Below, in pieces: positions 18,129 to 56,089 of a stretch of DNA of 64,000 nt; positions within the stretch are counted from its first letter, which is position 1; every line of letters starts with the position of its first letter. Location: positions 116,239 through 180,238 of the forward strand of contig JACROH010000001.1 in the NCBI GenBank assembly GCA_016214545.1, in the 5' to 3' direction. The DNA comes from Candidatus Lloydbacteria bacterium (GTDB lineage: Bacteria > Patescibacteriota > Minisyncoccia > Phycocordibacterales > 21-14-all-47-15). The position numbers were made by a program, and so were the translations under genes. The notes below the pieces were generated by a model. It was not told the DNA's origin, did not search any database, and saw only the letters and a program-made list of their open reading frames with translations.

Positions 18129-19490
18129 ATGAAAAAAGTCCATTGTATTGGCATCGGGGGAATTGGCGTGTCGGCGTTGGCACGATTTTTTCTGTCGCGC
18201 GGAATGCGGGTGAGCGGTTCGGACGGTAAAGACGGCTCGTGGAGGAAGTCTATTGAAGACGCGGGAGTGAAAGTTTTTATTGGACACGATGCGAAAAATA
18301 TTCCTCTCGATTGTGATTTGATTATTTATTCGTCAGCGGTGCCAGAAGACAATGCCGAAAGAAAAGAGGCGTTCCGTCGCAATATTCCGCAAAAGACTTA
18401 TGCGGAAGGGCTCGGCGAAGCGATGAAAGAATACGAAACGCGGATTGCCGTATCGGGGACGCACGGCAAAACGACGGCCACCGCGCTTTTGGGGCTTCTC
18501 TTTGAAGGGGCAAAGAAAGATCCGATGGTGATTGTCGGCGGGAAAGTCCCTTCGTGGAAGAGCAACTTCAGGAACGGGTGGGGAAGTGTTGCCATTGCCG
18601 AAGCGTGCGAATACGAAAGGGCGTTTGACGCGCTTTCTCCTACGGTTGCGATTGTGAACAATATTGAAGCCGACCATCTTGATTACTACCGCGATATTTT
18701 GGATGTTGAAAATGCCTTTGGAGATTTTGTGGAGAGACTGCCAAAAAACGGACTGCTTATCTACAACGCGGATGACGAGCGGGTACGGAGAATCGCTCTT
18801 CTGGCCAGATGCCGTGGCGCTTCTTTTGGCGTAAAAAATGATGCTGATGTTGTCGCGAAAAACAGGACGATGGGGGATGGAGGGCAGAGTTTTGATGTAT
18901 GGAGAAGGGGGGCGTTGCTTGGGCGCGTGATGCTCCATGTCCCCGGGGTTTTCAATATTTCAAACGCGCTCGCGGCACTTTCGTGCGCTCTTGAGCACGG
19001 CGTGCCGTTTTCGGAAGCAAAAAAGACGCTTGAATCTTTTGTAGGCAGCTGGCGGCGATTTGAAAAAACGGGAGAGATTGACGGCAAGCCGATGATTTCC
19101 GATTACGCGCATCATCCGACGGCGGTACGCGGAACCATAGAGGCGGCGAAAGAATTTTTCCCAGGCAAAAAAATACTCGCGGTATTTCAGCCGCACCAGC
19201 GTGATCGGACGCTCAAACTCTTTGATGAATTTGCTCGTGCCTTTGACGATGCGGATGGCGTCATTCTTTCCGAAATTTATGATGTCGCGGGCCGAAACGA
19301 AGCCGAAAAAGACATAAGCTCTTGCGAGCTTATGTCTGCCATTCAAAAAAGAAATCTAAAACAGGATGTTGCATACGCTCGTGATGTAGCGGAAACAAAA
19401 AAAATGATTCAGAAAAAAATAAATGATTTTGACGTCCTGCTCATTATGGGGGCGGGGGATATTGATACTATTGCAAGGAATATTTTTTGA
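18129..19490 (+). CDS. murC: UDP-N-acetylmuramate--L-alanine ligase
   Basis: MKKVHCIGIGGIGVSALARFFLSRGMRVSGSD Mur-ligase N-terminus; ATP-binding GTHGKTTATALL. Confidence 0.9.
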   Translation: MKKVHCIGIGGIGVSALARFFLSRGMRVSGSDGKDGSWRKSIEDAGVKVFIGHDAKNIPLDCDLIIYSSAVPEDNAERKEAFRRNIPQKTYAEGLGEAMKEYETRIAVSGTHGKTTATALLGLLFEGAKKDPMVIVGGKVPSWKSNFRNGWGSVAIAEACEYERAFDALSPTVAIVNNIEADHLDYYRDILDVENAFGDFVERLPKNGLLIYNADDERVRRIALLARCRGASFGVKNDADVVAKNRTMGDGGQSFDVWRRGALLGRVMLHVPGVFNISNALAALSCALEHGVPFSEAKKTLESFVGSWRRFEKTGEIDGKPMISDYAHHPTAVRGTIEAAKEFFPGKKILAVFQPHQRDRTLKLFDEFARAFDDADGVILSEIYDVAGRNEAEKDISSCELMSAIQKRNLKQDVAYARDVAETKKMIQKKINDFDVLLIMGAGDIDTIARNIF

Positions 19491-33053: not shown

Positions 33054-33493
33054 GGCTTTGTGTCGGGTAGTTGCCCCGCTCCGCGAAAAGCGGGACGGGG
33101 AGGAAAGTCCGAACACGGGCGCGTTGAAAGACGCGCGAGCAGGGTAGCGGGTAACGCCCGTCGTCCGCAAGGATAGAGGTGCGAGCAGAGACGCTTTGAT
33201 TCGAAAGGATCAAAGCTCCGACGGCAACGTCGGAGAGTCCCGATGGCAACATCGGGGGTGAAACGGCAAAATCCTTACCTCCGTGCAAGGCCGTGCCCCG
33301 CTTTTATGGCGGGGAGTGCCGCTTGAGGCGTTTGGCAACAAACGTCCCAGATAAATAACTATCGCCGAGCACCACTTTTGACGAAAGGTTTAGGTGTTAA
33401 AAAGTGATTCTGTGAGAATCACTTTTAATAACAGCTTTATTTTGTTTCAAAAGTGGTGCTCGGTACAGAATTCGGCTTATAGACACAAAGCCT
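33054..33493 (+). ncRNA. rnpB: RNase P RNA (bacterial type A) with an AT-rich insertion helix
   Basis: -10 tataat at 33041-46. P1 gctttgtgtc (5') pairs gacacaaagc (3'). Conserved GGGAGGAAAGTCCGAACAC, GCAGGGTAGCGGGTAACGCCCGT, GGTGAAACGGCAAAATCC and 3' ACAGAATTCGGCTTAT blocks. 14-bp stem 33366-33379/33451-33464 encloses ~70 nt of AT-rich sequence. Strong terminator follows. Confidence 0.85.
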
Positions 33494-33504
33494 TGAAGAT
33501 TCAT

Positions 33505-39834: not shown

Positions 39835-40212
39835 ATGTCAATAAACGATTTTCGAAAAAAAAGACAATTAAAACGCATTCTGTATTCAACGGGGGCCCTC
39901 GTGGTTCTTGGTGTTATAGTCTTTTTCCTTGGTCATGCGACGTGGGATGTGTATCAAAAAGCGAAGCTTACGGATGAGCGGCGGCAAGAAGCATTAAATG
40001 AGCTCACGCGCCTAAAGAAACAAGAAGCAACCCTTAAAGAGCAATTACAGCGTTTGCAAACGGACCGCGGCATCGAAGAAGAGGTGCGCACAAAATTCAA
40101 TGTTGCAAAAGAAGGGGAGAAGGTCATCACGATTACTTCGCCGCAAAACGGGGAAGAAAGCGGTACCTCGCAGGCAGCCCCTTGGTGGAAGCGAATTTTT
40201 GGTATTCAGTAA
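39835..40212 (+). CDS. Septum formation initiator (FtsB/DivIC-like) protein
   Basis: N-terminal TM (LYSTGALVVLGVIVFFLG), then coiled coil NELTRLKKQEATLKEQLQRLQTD and RGIEEEVRTKFNVAKEGEKVI. Confidence 0.7.
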   Translation: MSINDFRKKRQLKRILYSTGALVVLGVIVFFLGHATWDVYQKAKLTDERRQEALNELTRLKKQEATLKEQLQRLQTDRGIEEEVRTKFNVAKEGEKVITITSPQNGEESGTSQAAPWWKRIFGIQ

Positions 40213-40218
40213 TTTTTT

Positions 40219-40289
40219 GCGGGTATAGTTTAGTGGCAGAATGGTTGCTTCCCAAGCAACAGATCGGAGTTCGATTCTCCGTACCCGCA
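40219..40289 (+). tRNA. tRNA-Gly (anticodon CCC)
   Basis: Cloverleaf folded by hand: acceptor GCGGGTA/TACCCGC, anticodon stem GTTGC/GCAAC with loop TTCCCAA, T-arm CGGAG-TTCGATT-CTCCG, discriminator A; no encoded CCA. Confidence 0.9.
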
Positions 40290-40309
40290 TCATGAGCCCT
40301 GCGAATGAG

Positions 40310-40467
40310 GTGGGTACAGCAAGCCAACTGCTTGGCTTGCGTGGAGAATCGAAAAGCGGAGCCATATTGCCAACAAGCAATGGCGAGCTGGGGTCGAGAG
40401 TACTTAGCAGATTTTGAGCGTAGCGAAGAAATCGCTTAGTAACTCGTGACCGATTCTCCGTACCCAC
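40310..40467 (+). other. tRNA-like element / degenerate tRNA-Gly paralog with a ~100-nt internal segment
   Basis: 5' GTGGGTA (40310-16) and 3' TACCCAC (40461-67) form a perfect 7-bp acceptor-like stem that differs from tRNA-Gly by a compensatory pair. 3' side repeats the tRNA-Gly T-loop (cgattctccgtaccc). Internal 7-bp hairpin gcaagcc/ggcttgc and a 9-bp long-range helix ggagaatcg/cgattctcc. No T-arm. Confidence 0.3.
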
Positions 40468-40601
40468 ATAAAAATAATAAAGAGTCAGGCGCGAAGAGGG
40501 AGCCGTTTATTGACATTTTAGTATCTTTACGTATAATATTTTTTAGGCTAGTTTAAAGTTTTTTATCTTTGTCATAAAATAAATAACTGAAAGGGAAAAT
40601 T

Positions 40602-40880
40602 ATGCCCACTCCTGTTTGGAAAGAGGGGTACGTTCCGCTTGAGAAAGGGGAATTGGTAGTCTTGATATGGCGGTGGGGACAGCCAAACAAAACGGAAGTT
40701 GACGCGGTCAGTGTATCCTCGGATGAGCTGCTCCATCATCCGTGCGGAGGGCGTCTCATCGTAAAGCCGGTGGAGAAAAATAAAGAACTCTCTTGTCAAA
40801 AATGTGGTTTTTGGACGGTCTTTCCGGAAGAAATAAAAACTCTGGGAGAACTCAAGAGTTTCCTTGCAAAAGAATCTTGA
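40602..40880 (+). CDS. Small zinc-ribbon-like protein, hypothetical
   Basis: 92 aa; HHPCGG...CQKCG pattern; RBS gaaaggga upstream; first gene after the tRNA-Gly region. Confidence 0.55.
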   Translation: MPTPVWKEGYVPLEKGELVVLIWRWGQPNKTEVDAVSVSSDELLHHPCGGRLIVKPVEKNKELSCQKCGFWTVFPEEIKTLGELKSFLAKES

Positions 40881-41534: not shown

Positions 41535-41653
41535 TTTTCAAAAAAGCCGCTACAATGTAGCGGCTTTTGTTTTTTTCTGGATTCATGCTATCGTACGGGA
41601 AGTTAAAAAAGAACATTGAAAAATCAAAGGAAAGGAGAAGGAAGATGAATATT
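41535..41653 (+). repeat. 119-bp module copy 1: terminator hairpin, promoter-like region, RBS, ATG AAT ATT
   Basis: ttttcaaaaaagccgctacaatgtagcggcttttgtttttttctggattcatgctatcgtacgggaagttaaaaaagaacattgaaaaatcaaaggaaaggagaaggaagatgaatatt; 100% identical to 42566-42684. Confidence 0.9.
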
Positions 41654-42502
41654 TTAGACTTAGATTGTCTGAAACGTTTACAGAATTGGGTAGCTGACAA
41701 CGAGCGCCGTATGCGCGGAGCGGGTCCTCGTTGGGAAATGTATAAAAGATTAGCTCGCGACCTGGTGGATAAAGGAGATTGGTTTTGGATTCCGCTTGAT
41801 AGCGGGACACAAATACCGCTTATTGATGCACTGCTCTACCTAGCAGAGATTTCTGACCGAAAATCGATTCCAAGATTAAAGAAACTTGTCAAAAGATATA
41901 CCGCCCCATCTCCAAACTCAAAAAACGAGGACGAGTGGCGAGCATGCCGAGGAGGTGGCTTTGTGAAGGCGCTCTATGGGCCAGCCGATGAGATACCCAA
42001 GGAGGTTCAAAGGCGGGCAATTGAATCGCTTCTCAGGTTACTTTCTCTCCCGGAAGCAAAGAAATATACAGAAGAGCTGTTTGACGAAATTGATATAGAA
42101 AGCTTAGACTGGAGAACCATAAAGACGCTAACGGGTTTCATCGAAAAAAATAAAATGGCGGAATTTTCCTCGAGGGTATTAAAATTAGGCAAAACCATGA
42201 AATTTATTTTTGATGGATGTTCCAAGTCGTTTAATAGTTTATATGGGTATGAAGAGTTAGTTTTTTGTGCCTTTAATATCTCGGAAGAGAACGCAGAAAA
42301 AAAAGAAGCGTGGTGGATTCTAATTGAAGAATATAATCATCCCGACGGTTATGATAAATACAAAAGATCACATGACAGGATCGATCTTATTTTGTGTGAA
42401 ATCGTGGACCGTGAACGCCGAGAAGGACAATCGAGAACAGAGCCTCTCCTTGATCAAAGACGTCTTGCGAAAGACATGCCTTATTACAGAAAACATTACT
42501 GA
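41645..42502 (+). CDS. Hypothetical protein A (285 aa), first gene driven by the duplicated module
   Basis: Starts MNILDLDCLKRLQNW at the module ATG; RBS aaggagaagg; ~42% GC; no recognisable domain. Confidence 0.7.
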   Translation: MNILDLDCLKRLQNWVADNERRMRGAGPRWEMYKRLARDLVDKGDWFWIPLDSGTQIPLIDALLYLAEISDRKSIPRLKKLVKRYTAPSPNSKNEDEWRACRGGGFVKALYGPADEIPKEVQRRAIESLLRLLSLPEAKKYTEELFDEIDIESLDWRTIKTLTGFIEKNKMAEFSSRVLKLGKTMKFIFDGCSKSFNSLYGYEELVFCAFNISEENAEKKEAWWILIEEYNHPDGYDKYKRSHDRIDLILCEIVDRERREGQSRTEPLLDQRRLAKDMPYYRKHY

Positions 42503-42565: not shown

Positions 42566-42684
42566 TTTTCAAAAAAGCCGCTACAATGTAGCGGCTTTTG
42601 TTTTTTTCTGGATTCATGCTATCGTACGGGAAGTTAAAAAAGAACATTGAAAAATCAAAGGAAAGGAGAAGGAAGATGAATATT
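42566..42684 (+). repeat. 119-bp module copy 2 (identical to copy 1)
   Basis: Exact repeat 1,031 bp downstream of copy 1, again ending in ATG AAT ATT, which starts gene B. Confidence 0.9.
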
Positions 42685-42942
42685 ATTGGCGGATTTTTGT
42701 GTTCAGTTGGTCTGCATAAATTTGAAAAGGAACCGTCCCTGAAGGAGCCGATTAAAATGACGGGTGTGCACTTTGCCTTTTGGAGTGAGGCTGTTCAAAA
42801 AGGCGTCAAGAAGTGCTTAAGGGATGGTTGCGAAGCCACCAAGAAGGTATGGAGGCTAGGAATATATGGCCCCGGTGGCATGGCGAGTGAATGGGAGACA
42901 CTTGATGAAAAGAAAGAGAGGAAGAAAGATGAGTCCTATTGA
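42676..42942 (+). CDS. Hypothetical small protein B (88 aa)
   Basis: Starts MNIIGGFLCSVGLHKF at the module ATG; Cys/His scattered; KK/E-rich tail. Confidence 0.55.
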   Translation: MNIIGGFLCSVGLHKFEKEPSLKEPIKMTGVHFAFWSEAVQKGVKKCLRDGCEATKKVWRLGIYGPGGMASEWETLDEKKERKKDESY

Positions 42943-55648: not shown

Positions 55649-55740
55649 AAAAAGACCTGATAATGTTGATTTAAAAATACCCGTATGCCGCTGGTGTACG
55701 GGTATTTTTATTTGGCTTCAAATCGCGAAGTTTCAATCTG

Positions 55741-55758
55741 CGGAGAGGGAGGGATTCG
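55741..55758 (+). repeat. 18-bp exact direct repeat of the tRNA-Ser 3' end (cggagagggagggattcg); att-like
   Basis: Identical to 55941-55958, exactly 200 bp away, on the side beyond the tRNA 3' end. Confidence 0.7.
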
Positions 55759-55940
55759 GTCAGGAGTCGGTTATTTTTATACTACGCTTCGCTTCGTTAA
55801 AAATATACCGCTCACGACCCTGGCTCGGCGGAAAGAAAAGTTTTGCAAACTTTCCTCCGCCTCCGCCTTTCTAATCCCTCCTCGCGTCGATAGACGCCAA
55901 ATTTTGATAGCTATGAAAACGCTATCAAAATTTGTCGTTA

Positions 55941-56027
55941 CGGAGAGGGAGGGATTCGAACCCTCGATCCAGTTACCCGGATGCCGGTTTTCGAAACCGG
56001 TGCCTTCGACCACTCAGCCACCTCTCC
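55941..56027 (-). tRNA. tRNA-Ser (anticodon CGA), long variable arm
   Basis: Reverse complement GGAGAGG-TG-GCTGAGTGGTCGAAGGC-A-CCGGT-TTCGAAA-ACCGG-CATCCGGGTAACTGGATC-GAGGG-TTCGAAT-CCCTC-CCTCTCC-G. Confidence 0.85.
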
Positions 56028-56089
56028 ATCGGAGCCTATAATAGCACGCCCTTGTGTTTTTTTGAATGTTTGTTATGATAAAGCGCATT

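Follow-up and report, generated by a model that had tools for sequence, protein, structure and literature searches.

Some tRNA and tmRNA genes of Patescibacteria (CPR) are followed by a small non-coding element of about 110–250 nt, whose two arms copy the 3' end of the host gene, once inverted and once direct, and enclose a conserved structured core. One copy follows a tRNA-Gly gene in the window, that is, the whole 64,000-nt stretch of DNA that was analysed. About 146 copies were collected overall by pattern scans and a covariance model, and every named source belongs to the Patescibacteria. Almost all copies were located 0–100 nt downstream of a tRNA or tmRNA gene of nearly any identity and were co-oriented with it. 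Our preferred reading, which we hold with slightly less than even confidence, is that these are small non-autonomous elements which insert at tRNA 3' ends and are selected for the fold that they adopt as a single strand. A bolder claim, which we regard as possible and rather doubtful, is that it represents a new kind of (semi-)mobile element: a conserved RNA/ssDNA junction that copies the 3' end of its target twice, inverted and direct, with a closing stem built from host sequence, no protein gene of its own and a distribution specific to CPR.

The whole element in the window spans positions 40310–40468 on the plus strand. Its host is the tRNA-Gly(CCC) gene at 40218–40291 (+), which was called by ARAGORN and scored 68.1 bits with the Rfam tRNA model. 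The unit copied by the element is the last 18 nt of this gene, CGATTCTCCGTACCCGCA (40272–40289), which runs from C56 of the T loop to the discriminator. A 20-nt spacer, TCATGAGCCCTGCGAATGAG (40290–40309, +), belongs to the insertion and is also present in a truncated copy at an orthologous locus (L005). The outer part of the 5' arm, GTGGGTAC (40310–40317, +), is the inverted complement of the acceptor 3' strand and forms the 5' strand of P1; it pairs with GTACCCAC (40460–40467), and A40468 comes next. It is followed by the hairpin P2, GCAAGCCAA/TTGGCTTGC (40319–40340, +), which has 9 bp and a CUGC loop; an earlier reading of this DNA made from the sequence only had noticed the same hairpin and assigned it 7 bp. 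The inner part of the 5' arm, GGAGAATCG (40343–40351, +), complements the T-stem 3' strand and T-loop positions 56–60. It forms P3 with CGATTCTCC (40451–40459), which confirms the 9-bp long-range helix of that reading.

The core begins with an A-rich junction and P4, its first arm (40352–40389, +). The junction AAAA occupies 40352–40355, and A40355 also closes the basal stem. P4 shows the motif GAAArGCGGAG-hairpin-CGAGC; its basal stem has 3 bp and its internal loop is GGA/GA. P5, the second arm, lies at 40392–40450 (+) and carries the loop motif GAGCGUAGCGA. The element ends with the 3' arm, CGATTCTCCGTACCCACA (40451–40468, +), which repeats the tRNA 3' end directly except for a single substitution; its two halves are the 3' strands of P3 (40451–40459) and P1 (40460–40467).

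The repeat of the tRNA-Gly 3' end, also noted by the sequence-only reading, was 15 nt exact and 18/19 nt overall, and the 15-mer shared with tRNA-Gly had 3 exact copies in the window against 0.02 expected. The second GTGGGTA/TACCCAC-A stem was found 20 nt after tRNA-Gly, as that reading had described. Its compensatory change at pair 2-71, from C:G to U:A, is real against both tRNA-Gly and the relatives: the G to A substitution in the 3' arm is mirrored by C to T in the 5' arm. P1 is intact in the window copy, with U:A where relatives show C:G or U.G, and the U.G of relatives stands opposite an unchanged 3' arm. Two other copies (L002 and L035) carry the C:G state, GCGGGTAC/GTACCCGC, and the truncated L005 copy already has GTGGGTAC on its 5' side. 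The minimum free energy of the window element was -75.1 kcal/mol, against -43.6 ± 3.7 for shuffled sequences (z = -8.6), and none of 200 shuffles equalled it. Because of this difference, the fold is not due to chance.

The acceptor-like stem has an A next to it, and the short reading frame inside had been taken as reminiscent of a tmRNA tag. The frame itself (GCA GAT ... GCT TAG TAA, 10 codons and a double stop) is present at 40408–40443. It lies within P5, where length and sequence vary among relatives with indels that are not multiples of three, and TAG TAA is the conserved 3' strand CUUAGUAAC of this hairpin. The first stem pairs are G1:C, U2:A and G3:C, that is, not the G3:U70 of tmRNA. 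There are no pseudoknots and no cloverleaf with D, anticodon and T arms, and the identity pair 2-71 is not conserved. ARAGORN found no tmRNA in the window, and a scan of 40150–40650 with the Rfam tmRNA and tRNA models gave no match on the element, either at the gathering threshold or at E<=10. Both programs do find the canonical tmRNA in another locus of the family (L034), and bona fide, canonical tmRNA genes in related CPR genomes are themselves followed by copies of the element. A miniature tmRNA-like or aminoacylatable tRNA-like RNA is thus for practical purposes refuted, and we give it hardly any credence.

We scanned 185,579 species genomes for the P3/P4 motif GGAGAATCGAAANGCGGAG and obtained 72 loci. 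About 50 showed the full architecture, all of them in CPR MAGs, among others of Saccharibacteria, Paceibacterota, Campbell-, Vogel-, Nomura- and Yonathbacteria. All genuine occurrences of this motif were located 37–110 nt downstream of a same-strand tRNA/tmRNA gene. An automatic complementarity search for P1 produced too much noise, and a covariance model, R1, was used instead (152 positions and 40 pairs, built from 20 members). R1 found 78 copies in the pattern-scan loci and 0 in non-CPR loci; about 20 of the 72 loci were rejected as random pattern matches in non-CPR or unrelated DNA, and R1 matched none of them. Seventy-four of the 78 copies stood directly behind a same-strand tRNA/tmRNA gene, the hosts being Gly (47), Pro (8), Glu (5), tmRNA (4), Leu (3), Ala (3), Arg (2), Trp (1) and Ser (1). 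The window copy, a member of the seed alignment, scored 142.5 bits (E 7e-36). It shows the features by which the family is defined: it follows a tRNA on the same strand and has a host-copied 3' arm, a complementary 5' arm and the core.

Metagenomes were scanned with a host-independent core pattern, which gave at least 120 loci, and 80 of these were examined. R1 found 68 further copies in them; about 30 of the 80 were random pattern matches that R1 did not match. The hosts were tRNAs for Ala, Arg, Asp, Cys, Glu, Gly, Ile, Leu, Lys, Met, Pro, Ser, Tyr and Val, as well as tmRNA; even where no tRNA was called upstream, several copies come after a 3' end that resembles a T-arm and acceptor. The about 146 copies come from about 1.1 Mb sampled around pattern matches, so that their density is biased upward. 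The family is apparently confined to Patescibacteria/CPR. When 13 copies in 7 loci were searched against Rfam 15 at E<=0.1, no family matched them and only the neighbouring tRNA/tmRNA genes were hit. Nothing describing such an element was found in open-access papers, and the family is apparently undescribed so far.

A second member was detected in the window itself, at 55740–55909 on the minus strand. R1 matched it with 39.6 bits (E 6e-9), and it was not in the seed. It lies 31 nt downstream of tRNA-Ser(CGA) (55940–56028, -). The 3' arm, CGAATCCCTCCCTCTCCG, exactly repeats 18 nt of the tRNA-Ser 3' end, beginning at C56, and the 5' strand of its P3, GAGGGATT, matches the T-arm of tRNA-Ser. The fold (z = -5.7) has the same architecture as that of the tRNA-Gly copy.

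Members of the family consist of four parts: the 5' arm, an optional P2, the three-way-junction core with P4 and P5, and the 3' arm. The 3' arm repeats the host 3' end directly and exactly, usually over 18–22 nt. Its left edge is nearly always C56 of the T loop, whatever the host, and its right edge is the discriminator plus 1–4 nt. The 5' arm complements the host 3' end, and the 3' arm, in inverted orientation. It does not reproduce the tRNA 5' strand, because behind tmRNA its position 3 is A, which pairs with U70, and not G. The acceptor-like stem of the sequence-only reading was right as to its acceptor and T-stem sequence and has to be corrected in this respect. The two arms pair as P1 and P3 and thereby close the core, and throughout the family P1 follows the host tRNA and P3 varies with the T-arm of the host (Gly, GGAGAATCG; Pro, CCGAGATTTG; Ser, GAGGGATT).

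The core is composed of the junction GAAA, P4 (rGC, GGA-GA loop, hairpin, GCy), a 2–3-nt linker and P5, and follows the sequence pattern GAAArGCGGAG...CGAGCnnGGG, with GAGCGnAGCGA often at the tip of P5. Type A has P2 between the halves of the 5' arm and type B is without it. A third, short-armed type has arms of about 5 nt, which copy only the last about 5 nt of the host, and it directly adjoins the terminator hairpin of the tRNA. By-eye comparison of the junction with a hammerhead core (no 7-nt CUGANGA strand) and with a canonical k-turn (a bulge of 1 nt rather than 3 nt) led us to reject both.

Covariation, which the sequence-only reading had proposed to test, is strong. RNAalifold on a MAFFT alignment gave 32 pairs, 19 of them with compensatory double changes. 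In the alignment of the 78 copies, which was fitted to R1 so that pair counts favour pairing, 90.6% of cells pair, against 66.9% when shuffled and 32–42% when partners were slid by 1–3 columns. Double changes were observed at 38 of the 40 pairs. The P2–P5 helices were 95–98% paired: P2 reached 95% with double changes at all 9 pairs, pair 74:236 in P4 was GC in 52 and AU in 18 copies, and helices 7-8 of P5 were 96–98% paired, with 3–4 pair types at several pairs. On these comparative grounds the fold is shown to be under selection. Since G.U outnumbers A.C in P2–P5 (65 versus 19, a bias that is only indicative in a model-fitted alignment), the data point to the tRNA-sense strand as the one that folds. 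P1 was only 69% paired, with no G.U excess, and the outer stem decays in many copies, for which reason P1 may be a decaying by-product.

The main rival explanation is a functional non-coding RNA, or cis module, made from the tRNA trailer by read-through of the tRNA or tmRNA gene, with mobility being secondary. Such an RNA might take part in 3'-end processing or stability, bind a protein, or serve as an insulator or a sponge; the host-derived arms would be a processing stalk for tRNA-maturation enzymes, and the element would spread by local duplication of tRNA ends and be homogenised by gene conversion. The strong covariation and the conservation of the junction across deeply divergent CPR classes, the excess of G.U over A.C, the compensatory U:A at pair 2-71 of P1, the strict co-orientation with the host gene and the concerted evolution of interiors within genomes (below) are all in its favour. 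So is the transcription context in the window, where tRNA and element are not separated by a terminator. Because no promoter or terminator was found between ftsB, tRNA-Gly and the window element, co-transcription of the three is the simplest expectation and is predicted as most likely, and it would give a stable structured trailer RNA. A consensus sigma-70 promoter (TTGACA-16-TATAAT, 40510–40537, +) lies outside the element and serves the downstream genes; it probably marks the end of the tRNA-Gly/element transcription unit.

Several observations speak against such a trailer RNA. At other loci, a terminator-like hairpin precedes the element in many cases, and co-transcription is questionable for this reason. 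In 92 loci, each chosen for holding a copy, 98 of 181 tRNA/tmRNA genes have a copy next to them, a share that is biased upward by this choice; hence few genes beyond the one selected at each locus carry a copy, and the element is carried by only a minority of tRNA genes. Truncated copies are tolerated, and presence, absence and replacement of subtypes are seen among close relatives. P1 often pairs the discriminator and trailer too, so that it is not a faithful mimic of the acceptor stem. We consider the trailer RNA a possible explanation, and on the whole a doubtful one.

The differences among close relatives were followed at orthologous loci, which were fetched through homologues of the FtsB-like protein encoded upstream. 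In the window, which is DNA of a Candidatus Lloydbacteria (Parcubacteria/CPR) MAG, this protein is 100% identical to an NCBI Lloydbacteria protein. In one orthologous locus (L002, FtsB 96% identical), the same site behind tRNA-Gly holds a 236-nt element of a different subtype. An uninterrupted stretch of 17 nt, GCGGGTACGGAGAATCG, makes up its 5' arm and CGATTCTCCGTACCCGCA its 3' arm, and there is partial homology in the interior. The same 17-mer also occurs exactly in murC of the window (18779–18795); murC orthologues have 2–4 mismatches in the same codons, and this match was rejected as a related site and treated as chance plus coding constraint. Another locus (L005, protein 80% identical) retains only a stub, namely a spacer of the window type followed by the element's first 22 nt. 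In four further loci (L004, L006, L008 and L010) the tRNA is followed by no element at all. The DNA past the 3' arm of L002 aligns with the DNA directly 3' of the tRNA in L004 and L008. Since filled and empty orthologous sites can be compared in this way, and the flank of L002 is homologous to those of L004 and L008, sequence alignment shows that the unit, which comprises the spacer, the 5' arm, the core and a single tRNA-end copy, is an insertion, and the element turns over quickly among close relatives. This result bears out the att-type alternative of the sequence-only reading, as far as the duplicated tRNA 3' end is concerned.

Another account of the duplicated tRNA 3' end would be inert debris: a decayed tRNA-Gly duplicate or the att remnant of a lost island, with hairpins that arose by palindrome extension at the tRNA terminator. 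In its favour, attL/attR sites typically show such a direct repeat, there are stubs and internally deleted copies, and the tRNA end, spacer and 5' arm often form one long imperfect palindrome. Against this, about 146 copies behind many tRNAs share a homologous core with covariation at nearly all pairs, which cannot have come about by independent decay, and nothing in the interior resembles the D or anticodon arm of a tRNA. For the same reasons the element is not a decaying tRNA paralog; a tRNA-Gly paralog had been among the suggestions for the window. We regard debris as largely refuted and very improbable.

The interiors of copies behave differently from their arms. On one Vogelbacteria contig (L027), the copies behind tRNA-Gly and tRNA-Pro share a 98-nt interior (GAATCG...CGATTC) with 100% identity, and P2, the 5' arm and the 3' arm differ and each fit their own host. 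In one metagenome, a copy behind tRNA-Pro (L116) and another behind tRNA-Ser (L131) are identical over 103 nt with host-specific arms, and other pairs of copies have only the left or only the right module in common. Because of these identical interiors with differing, host-matched arms and this sharing of modules, interiors are taken to be exchanged or homogenised between copies while the arms remain host-specific. Identical interiors can be explained by gene conversion instead of transposition.

We surveyed 477 ORFs around about 50 copies by all-against-all clustering. No integrase, transposase or reverse transcriptase was enriched within ±3.5 kb of these copies. The recurrent neighbours were genes of conserved CPR synteny (YraN/UPF0102, HU, RNase Y, CCA-adding enzyme, FtsB and LepA), and YraN was rejected as a partner of the element in view of its scattered positions. 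Two motif scans of 2.9 million viral contigs gave 0 matches, on which basis a phage or plasmid attP origin was rejected. The lack of a recombinase or reverse transcriptase near the copies, and of matches in viral contigs, counts against an insertion element, and we know of no autonomous partner or free form of the element. Further, an att site or terminal repeat recognised by a protein should not vary freely with the host tRNA, and an inverted 5' arm matching the target is unexplained by any standard integrase or transposase mechanism.

Our preferred reading, a miniature non-autonomous element specific for tRNA 3' ends, would work as follows. The insertion scar would be the duplicated tRNA end, which could represent an att-type identity block or, equally well, a long staggered-cut duplication of the target. 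Its edges would fall at both classical integrase sublocations, the T loop and, in the short-armed type, the extreme 3' end; tyrosine integrases are said to use these two sublocations of tRNA/tmRNA genes (a finding attributed to Williams, 2002). Mobilisation would take place in trans, by an enzyme encoded away from the copies. The single-stranded fold, in a transcript or a top-strand ssDNA intermediate, would present a duplex copy of its own target and place it beside the conserved junction, and it would be the junction that is seen by selection and presumably also by the trans-acting factor. The inverted copy of the target suggests, by analogy, either a folded single-strand substrate that mimics the target duplex or guide-like pairing.

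Guide-like pairing would lead to a nucleic-acid-guided or retro-type mobile element, in which the 5' arm is the guide and the 3' arm the resulting target duplication. Group II intron EBS/IBS pairing, IS110 bridge RNAs, CAST homing guides and R2-like co-transcript-primed insertion could serve as analogues. The 3' arm is exact and the 5' arm often imperfect or wobble-paired, like an old guide beside a fresh target copy; the left edge fixed at 56 and the variable right edge (18–22 nt) resemble staggered-nick duplications; and nearly all tRNAs serve as hosts with matching arms. However, no reverse transcriptase, TnpB/IscB, IS110 or Cas gene was found nearby, and Rfam gave no match to group II introns or known guide-RNA scaffolds. 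The 5' part of P3 is almost always perfect to the host, which would require the guide to be rewritten at each host switch. We consider such a guided element unlikely.

Among known systems, the islands and CIMEs integrated at tRNA genes come close to our preferred reading. They also use the 3' end of tRNA/tmRNA genes, with a direct repeat from the T loop, tandem arrays and empty sites, and the short-armed subtype resembles their extreme-3'-end sublocation. The direct repeat and empty sites by which they are recognised were found for the element, but a cognate integrase was not, within ±3.5 kb. The element also differs in its size of about 110–250 nt, its absence from viral contigs, its inverted att copy and covarying fold, and the occurrence of one homologous core behind almost every tRNA type. 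Integron attC and CTX-phi attP(+) are recombination sites that act as folded single strands and are strand-specific. As in the element, structure is conserved over sequence, inverted arms refold a duplex, which in the element would be a putative recombination site, and the folding strand is apparently specific. In contrast to them, the arms of the element copy the target tRNA and its 'loop', instead of being a variable terminal structure, is a three-way junction of conserved sequence, and an ssDNA stage is purely hypothetical for it. None of the IntI/Xer motifs, the R-box or the dif motif was evident in its host-derived arms.

MITEs and REP/REPIN sequences are likewise small non-coding sequences present in many copies; they too have inverted repeats at their ends and a direct repeat beside them, and their transcripts form hairpins. 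Unlike the family-constant terminal repeats of MITEs, those of the element are re-derived from each host tRNA; the duplication is 18–22 nt with its edge fixed at tRNA position 56, and compared with MITEs and REPINs the position and orientation are strict. A parental IS, by which a MITE is identified, was not seen among the ORFs near the about 50 copies, and we know of no parental IS or RAYT (REP-associated tyrosine transposase) for it.

tmRNA, mascRNA, YrlA and viral tRNA-like structures share with the element a terminal stem of the acceptor/T-stem kind and a place in a tRNA transcription unit. In contrast to them, the element has no T loop, D arm, anticodon arm or G3:U70, its stem often runs over the discriminator, and it matched neither Rfam nor ARAGORN models. 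Finally, the tRNA 3'ETS RNAs, for example E. coli 3'ETS-leuZ, are short, unstructured, locus-specific and not repeated. The element would also come from the trailer of a tRNA precursor and could act as a stable RNA, but its fold is conserved and dispersed, and its arms are copied from the host.

A large part of bacterial diversity falls within the CPR/Patescibacteria, whose ncRNAs and mobile elements are to our knowledge almost uncharted. The present family is abundant, structurally well defined and tied to the most conserved genes of the cell. Should it be mobile, it would target tRNA genes with both arms derived from the target, an arrangement that the standard models of integrases, transposases and introns do not predict. 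As a cellular RNA, it would be a widespread CPR-specific partner of tRNA transcription units. The family explains spurious 'tRNA-like' or 'att-like' signals beside CPR tRNA genes, and R1 provides a covariance model that can be used in annotation.

The family also marks rearrangement hot spots at tRNA loci. Tandem arrays of identical and of divergent copies were observed (L042, L038, L034 and L022), and in two loci (L035 and L037) the second copy has internal deletions. Two interrupted copies were considered as 'full-length' versions of the element and rejected. One (L076) is broken up by AT-rich DNA that is unrelated and contains palindromic repeats of its own. The other (L067) has a 3.3-kb segment inside P4, which contains no recombinase and carries radical-SAM/SPASM, methyltransferase and GNAT genes.

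The family of tRNA-trailing elements extends to host RNAs that received no call from ARAGORN. Such elements were located in five metagenome loci: L158 (4339-4460), L159 (1339-1460), L114 (737-860) and L147 (6835-6960 and 9090-9233), all on the minus strand, and L160 (1-90), on the plus strand. The 3' end of the RNAs preceding them consists of a T-arm and an acceptor-like sequence, as in ...GGTCGGCGGTTCGAGCCCGCCCCTCGGCAC and ...GGTCGGGGGTGCAAGTCCCTCCCCCGCAAC. Possible identities of these hosts are unusual tRNAs, tRNAs with an intron and other RNAs that resemble tRNA. A divergent copy was found 3' of tRNA-Ala in L013 (7190-7583). At its junction, GAAAGGCGGAG is replaced by GGCGCAAGGCGG, and in P3 the copy is complementary to the T-arm of the tRNA-Ala. 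The family is therefore wider than the search patterns used in this analysis.

One family member is interrupted (L067, 2991-6252; Saccharibacteria-type MAG contig CAJVWH010000023.1). It is divided inside P4 by a 3.3-kb segment, whose borders carry inverted repeats of ~28 bp (CCGGAAATTTTAGCAGGGTGTTGCCAAA) together with a part of P4 that is present in duplicate. The segment encodes radical-SAM/SPASM, methyltransferase and GNAT proteins, and no recombinase was observed among its genes. A palindromic repeat, TGTTTCACGTGAAACA, occurs in many copies in Patescibacteria UBA2135 (L076, 6300-7700), some of them inside a YraN/UPF0102 gene whose product exceeds its homologues by about 60 aa. These copies form a small repeat family distinct from the tRNA-trailing elements.

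In three of the orthologous tRNA-Gly loci, tRNA-Gly 5' fragments (e.g. gcgggtatagtttagtgg) or related debris lie directly upstream of the functional tRNA-Gly (L010, 3390-3420; L004, 1470-1500; L005, 3200-3235). Judged from these sequences, the locus is rearranged on its 5' side as well.

An exact 17-mer, GCGGGTACGGAGAATCG, lies on the plus strand of the window at 18779-18795, within murC (18129-19490). It is complementary without mismatch to the 3' end of tRNA-Gly, and the same 17 nt form the contiguous 5' arm of the element in the orthologous locus L002. Only about 1e-5 such exact matches are expected by chance. The 17-mer translates as (E)RVRRI, and the same codons in two orthologous murC genes differ from it at 2-4 positions, because of which the murC copy was read as probably due to chance and coding constraint.

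Two plus-strand ORFs of the window, of 311 aa (41567-42502) and 114 aa (42598-42942), have the same first 28 residues, MFFSGFMLSYGKLKKNIEKSKERRRKMNI, which implies a direct repeat of ~90 nt with copies about 1 kb apart. The repeat is located between the tRNA-Gly-trailing element and tRNA-Arg/tRNA-Phe, a region that is a possible rearrangement hot spot. The window also encodes a class A bacterial RNase P RNA (33055-33495, plus strand, 118.5 bits), which contains insertions, since the match spans 441 nt versus 367 positions of the model.
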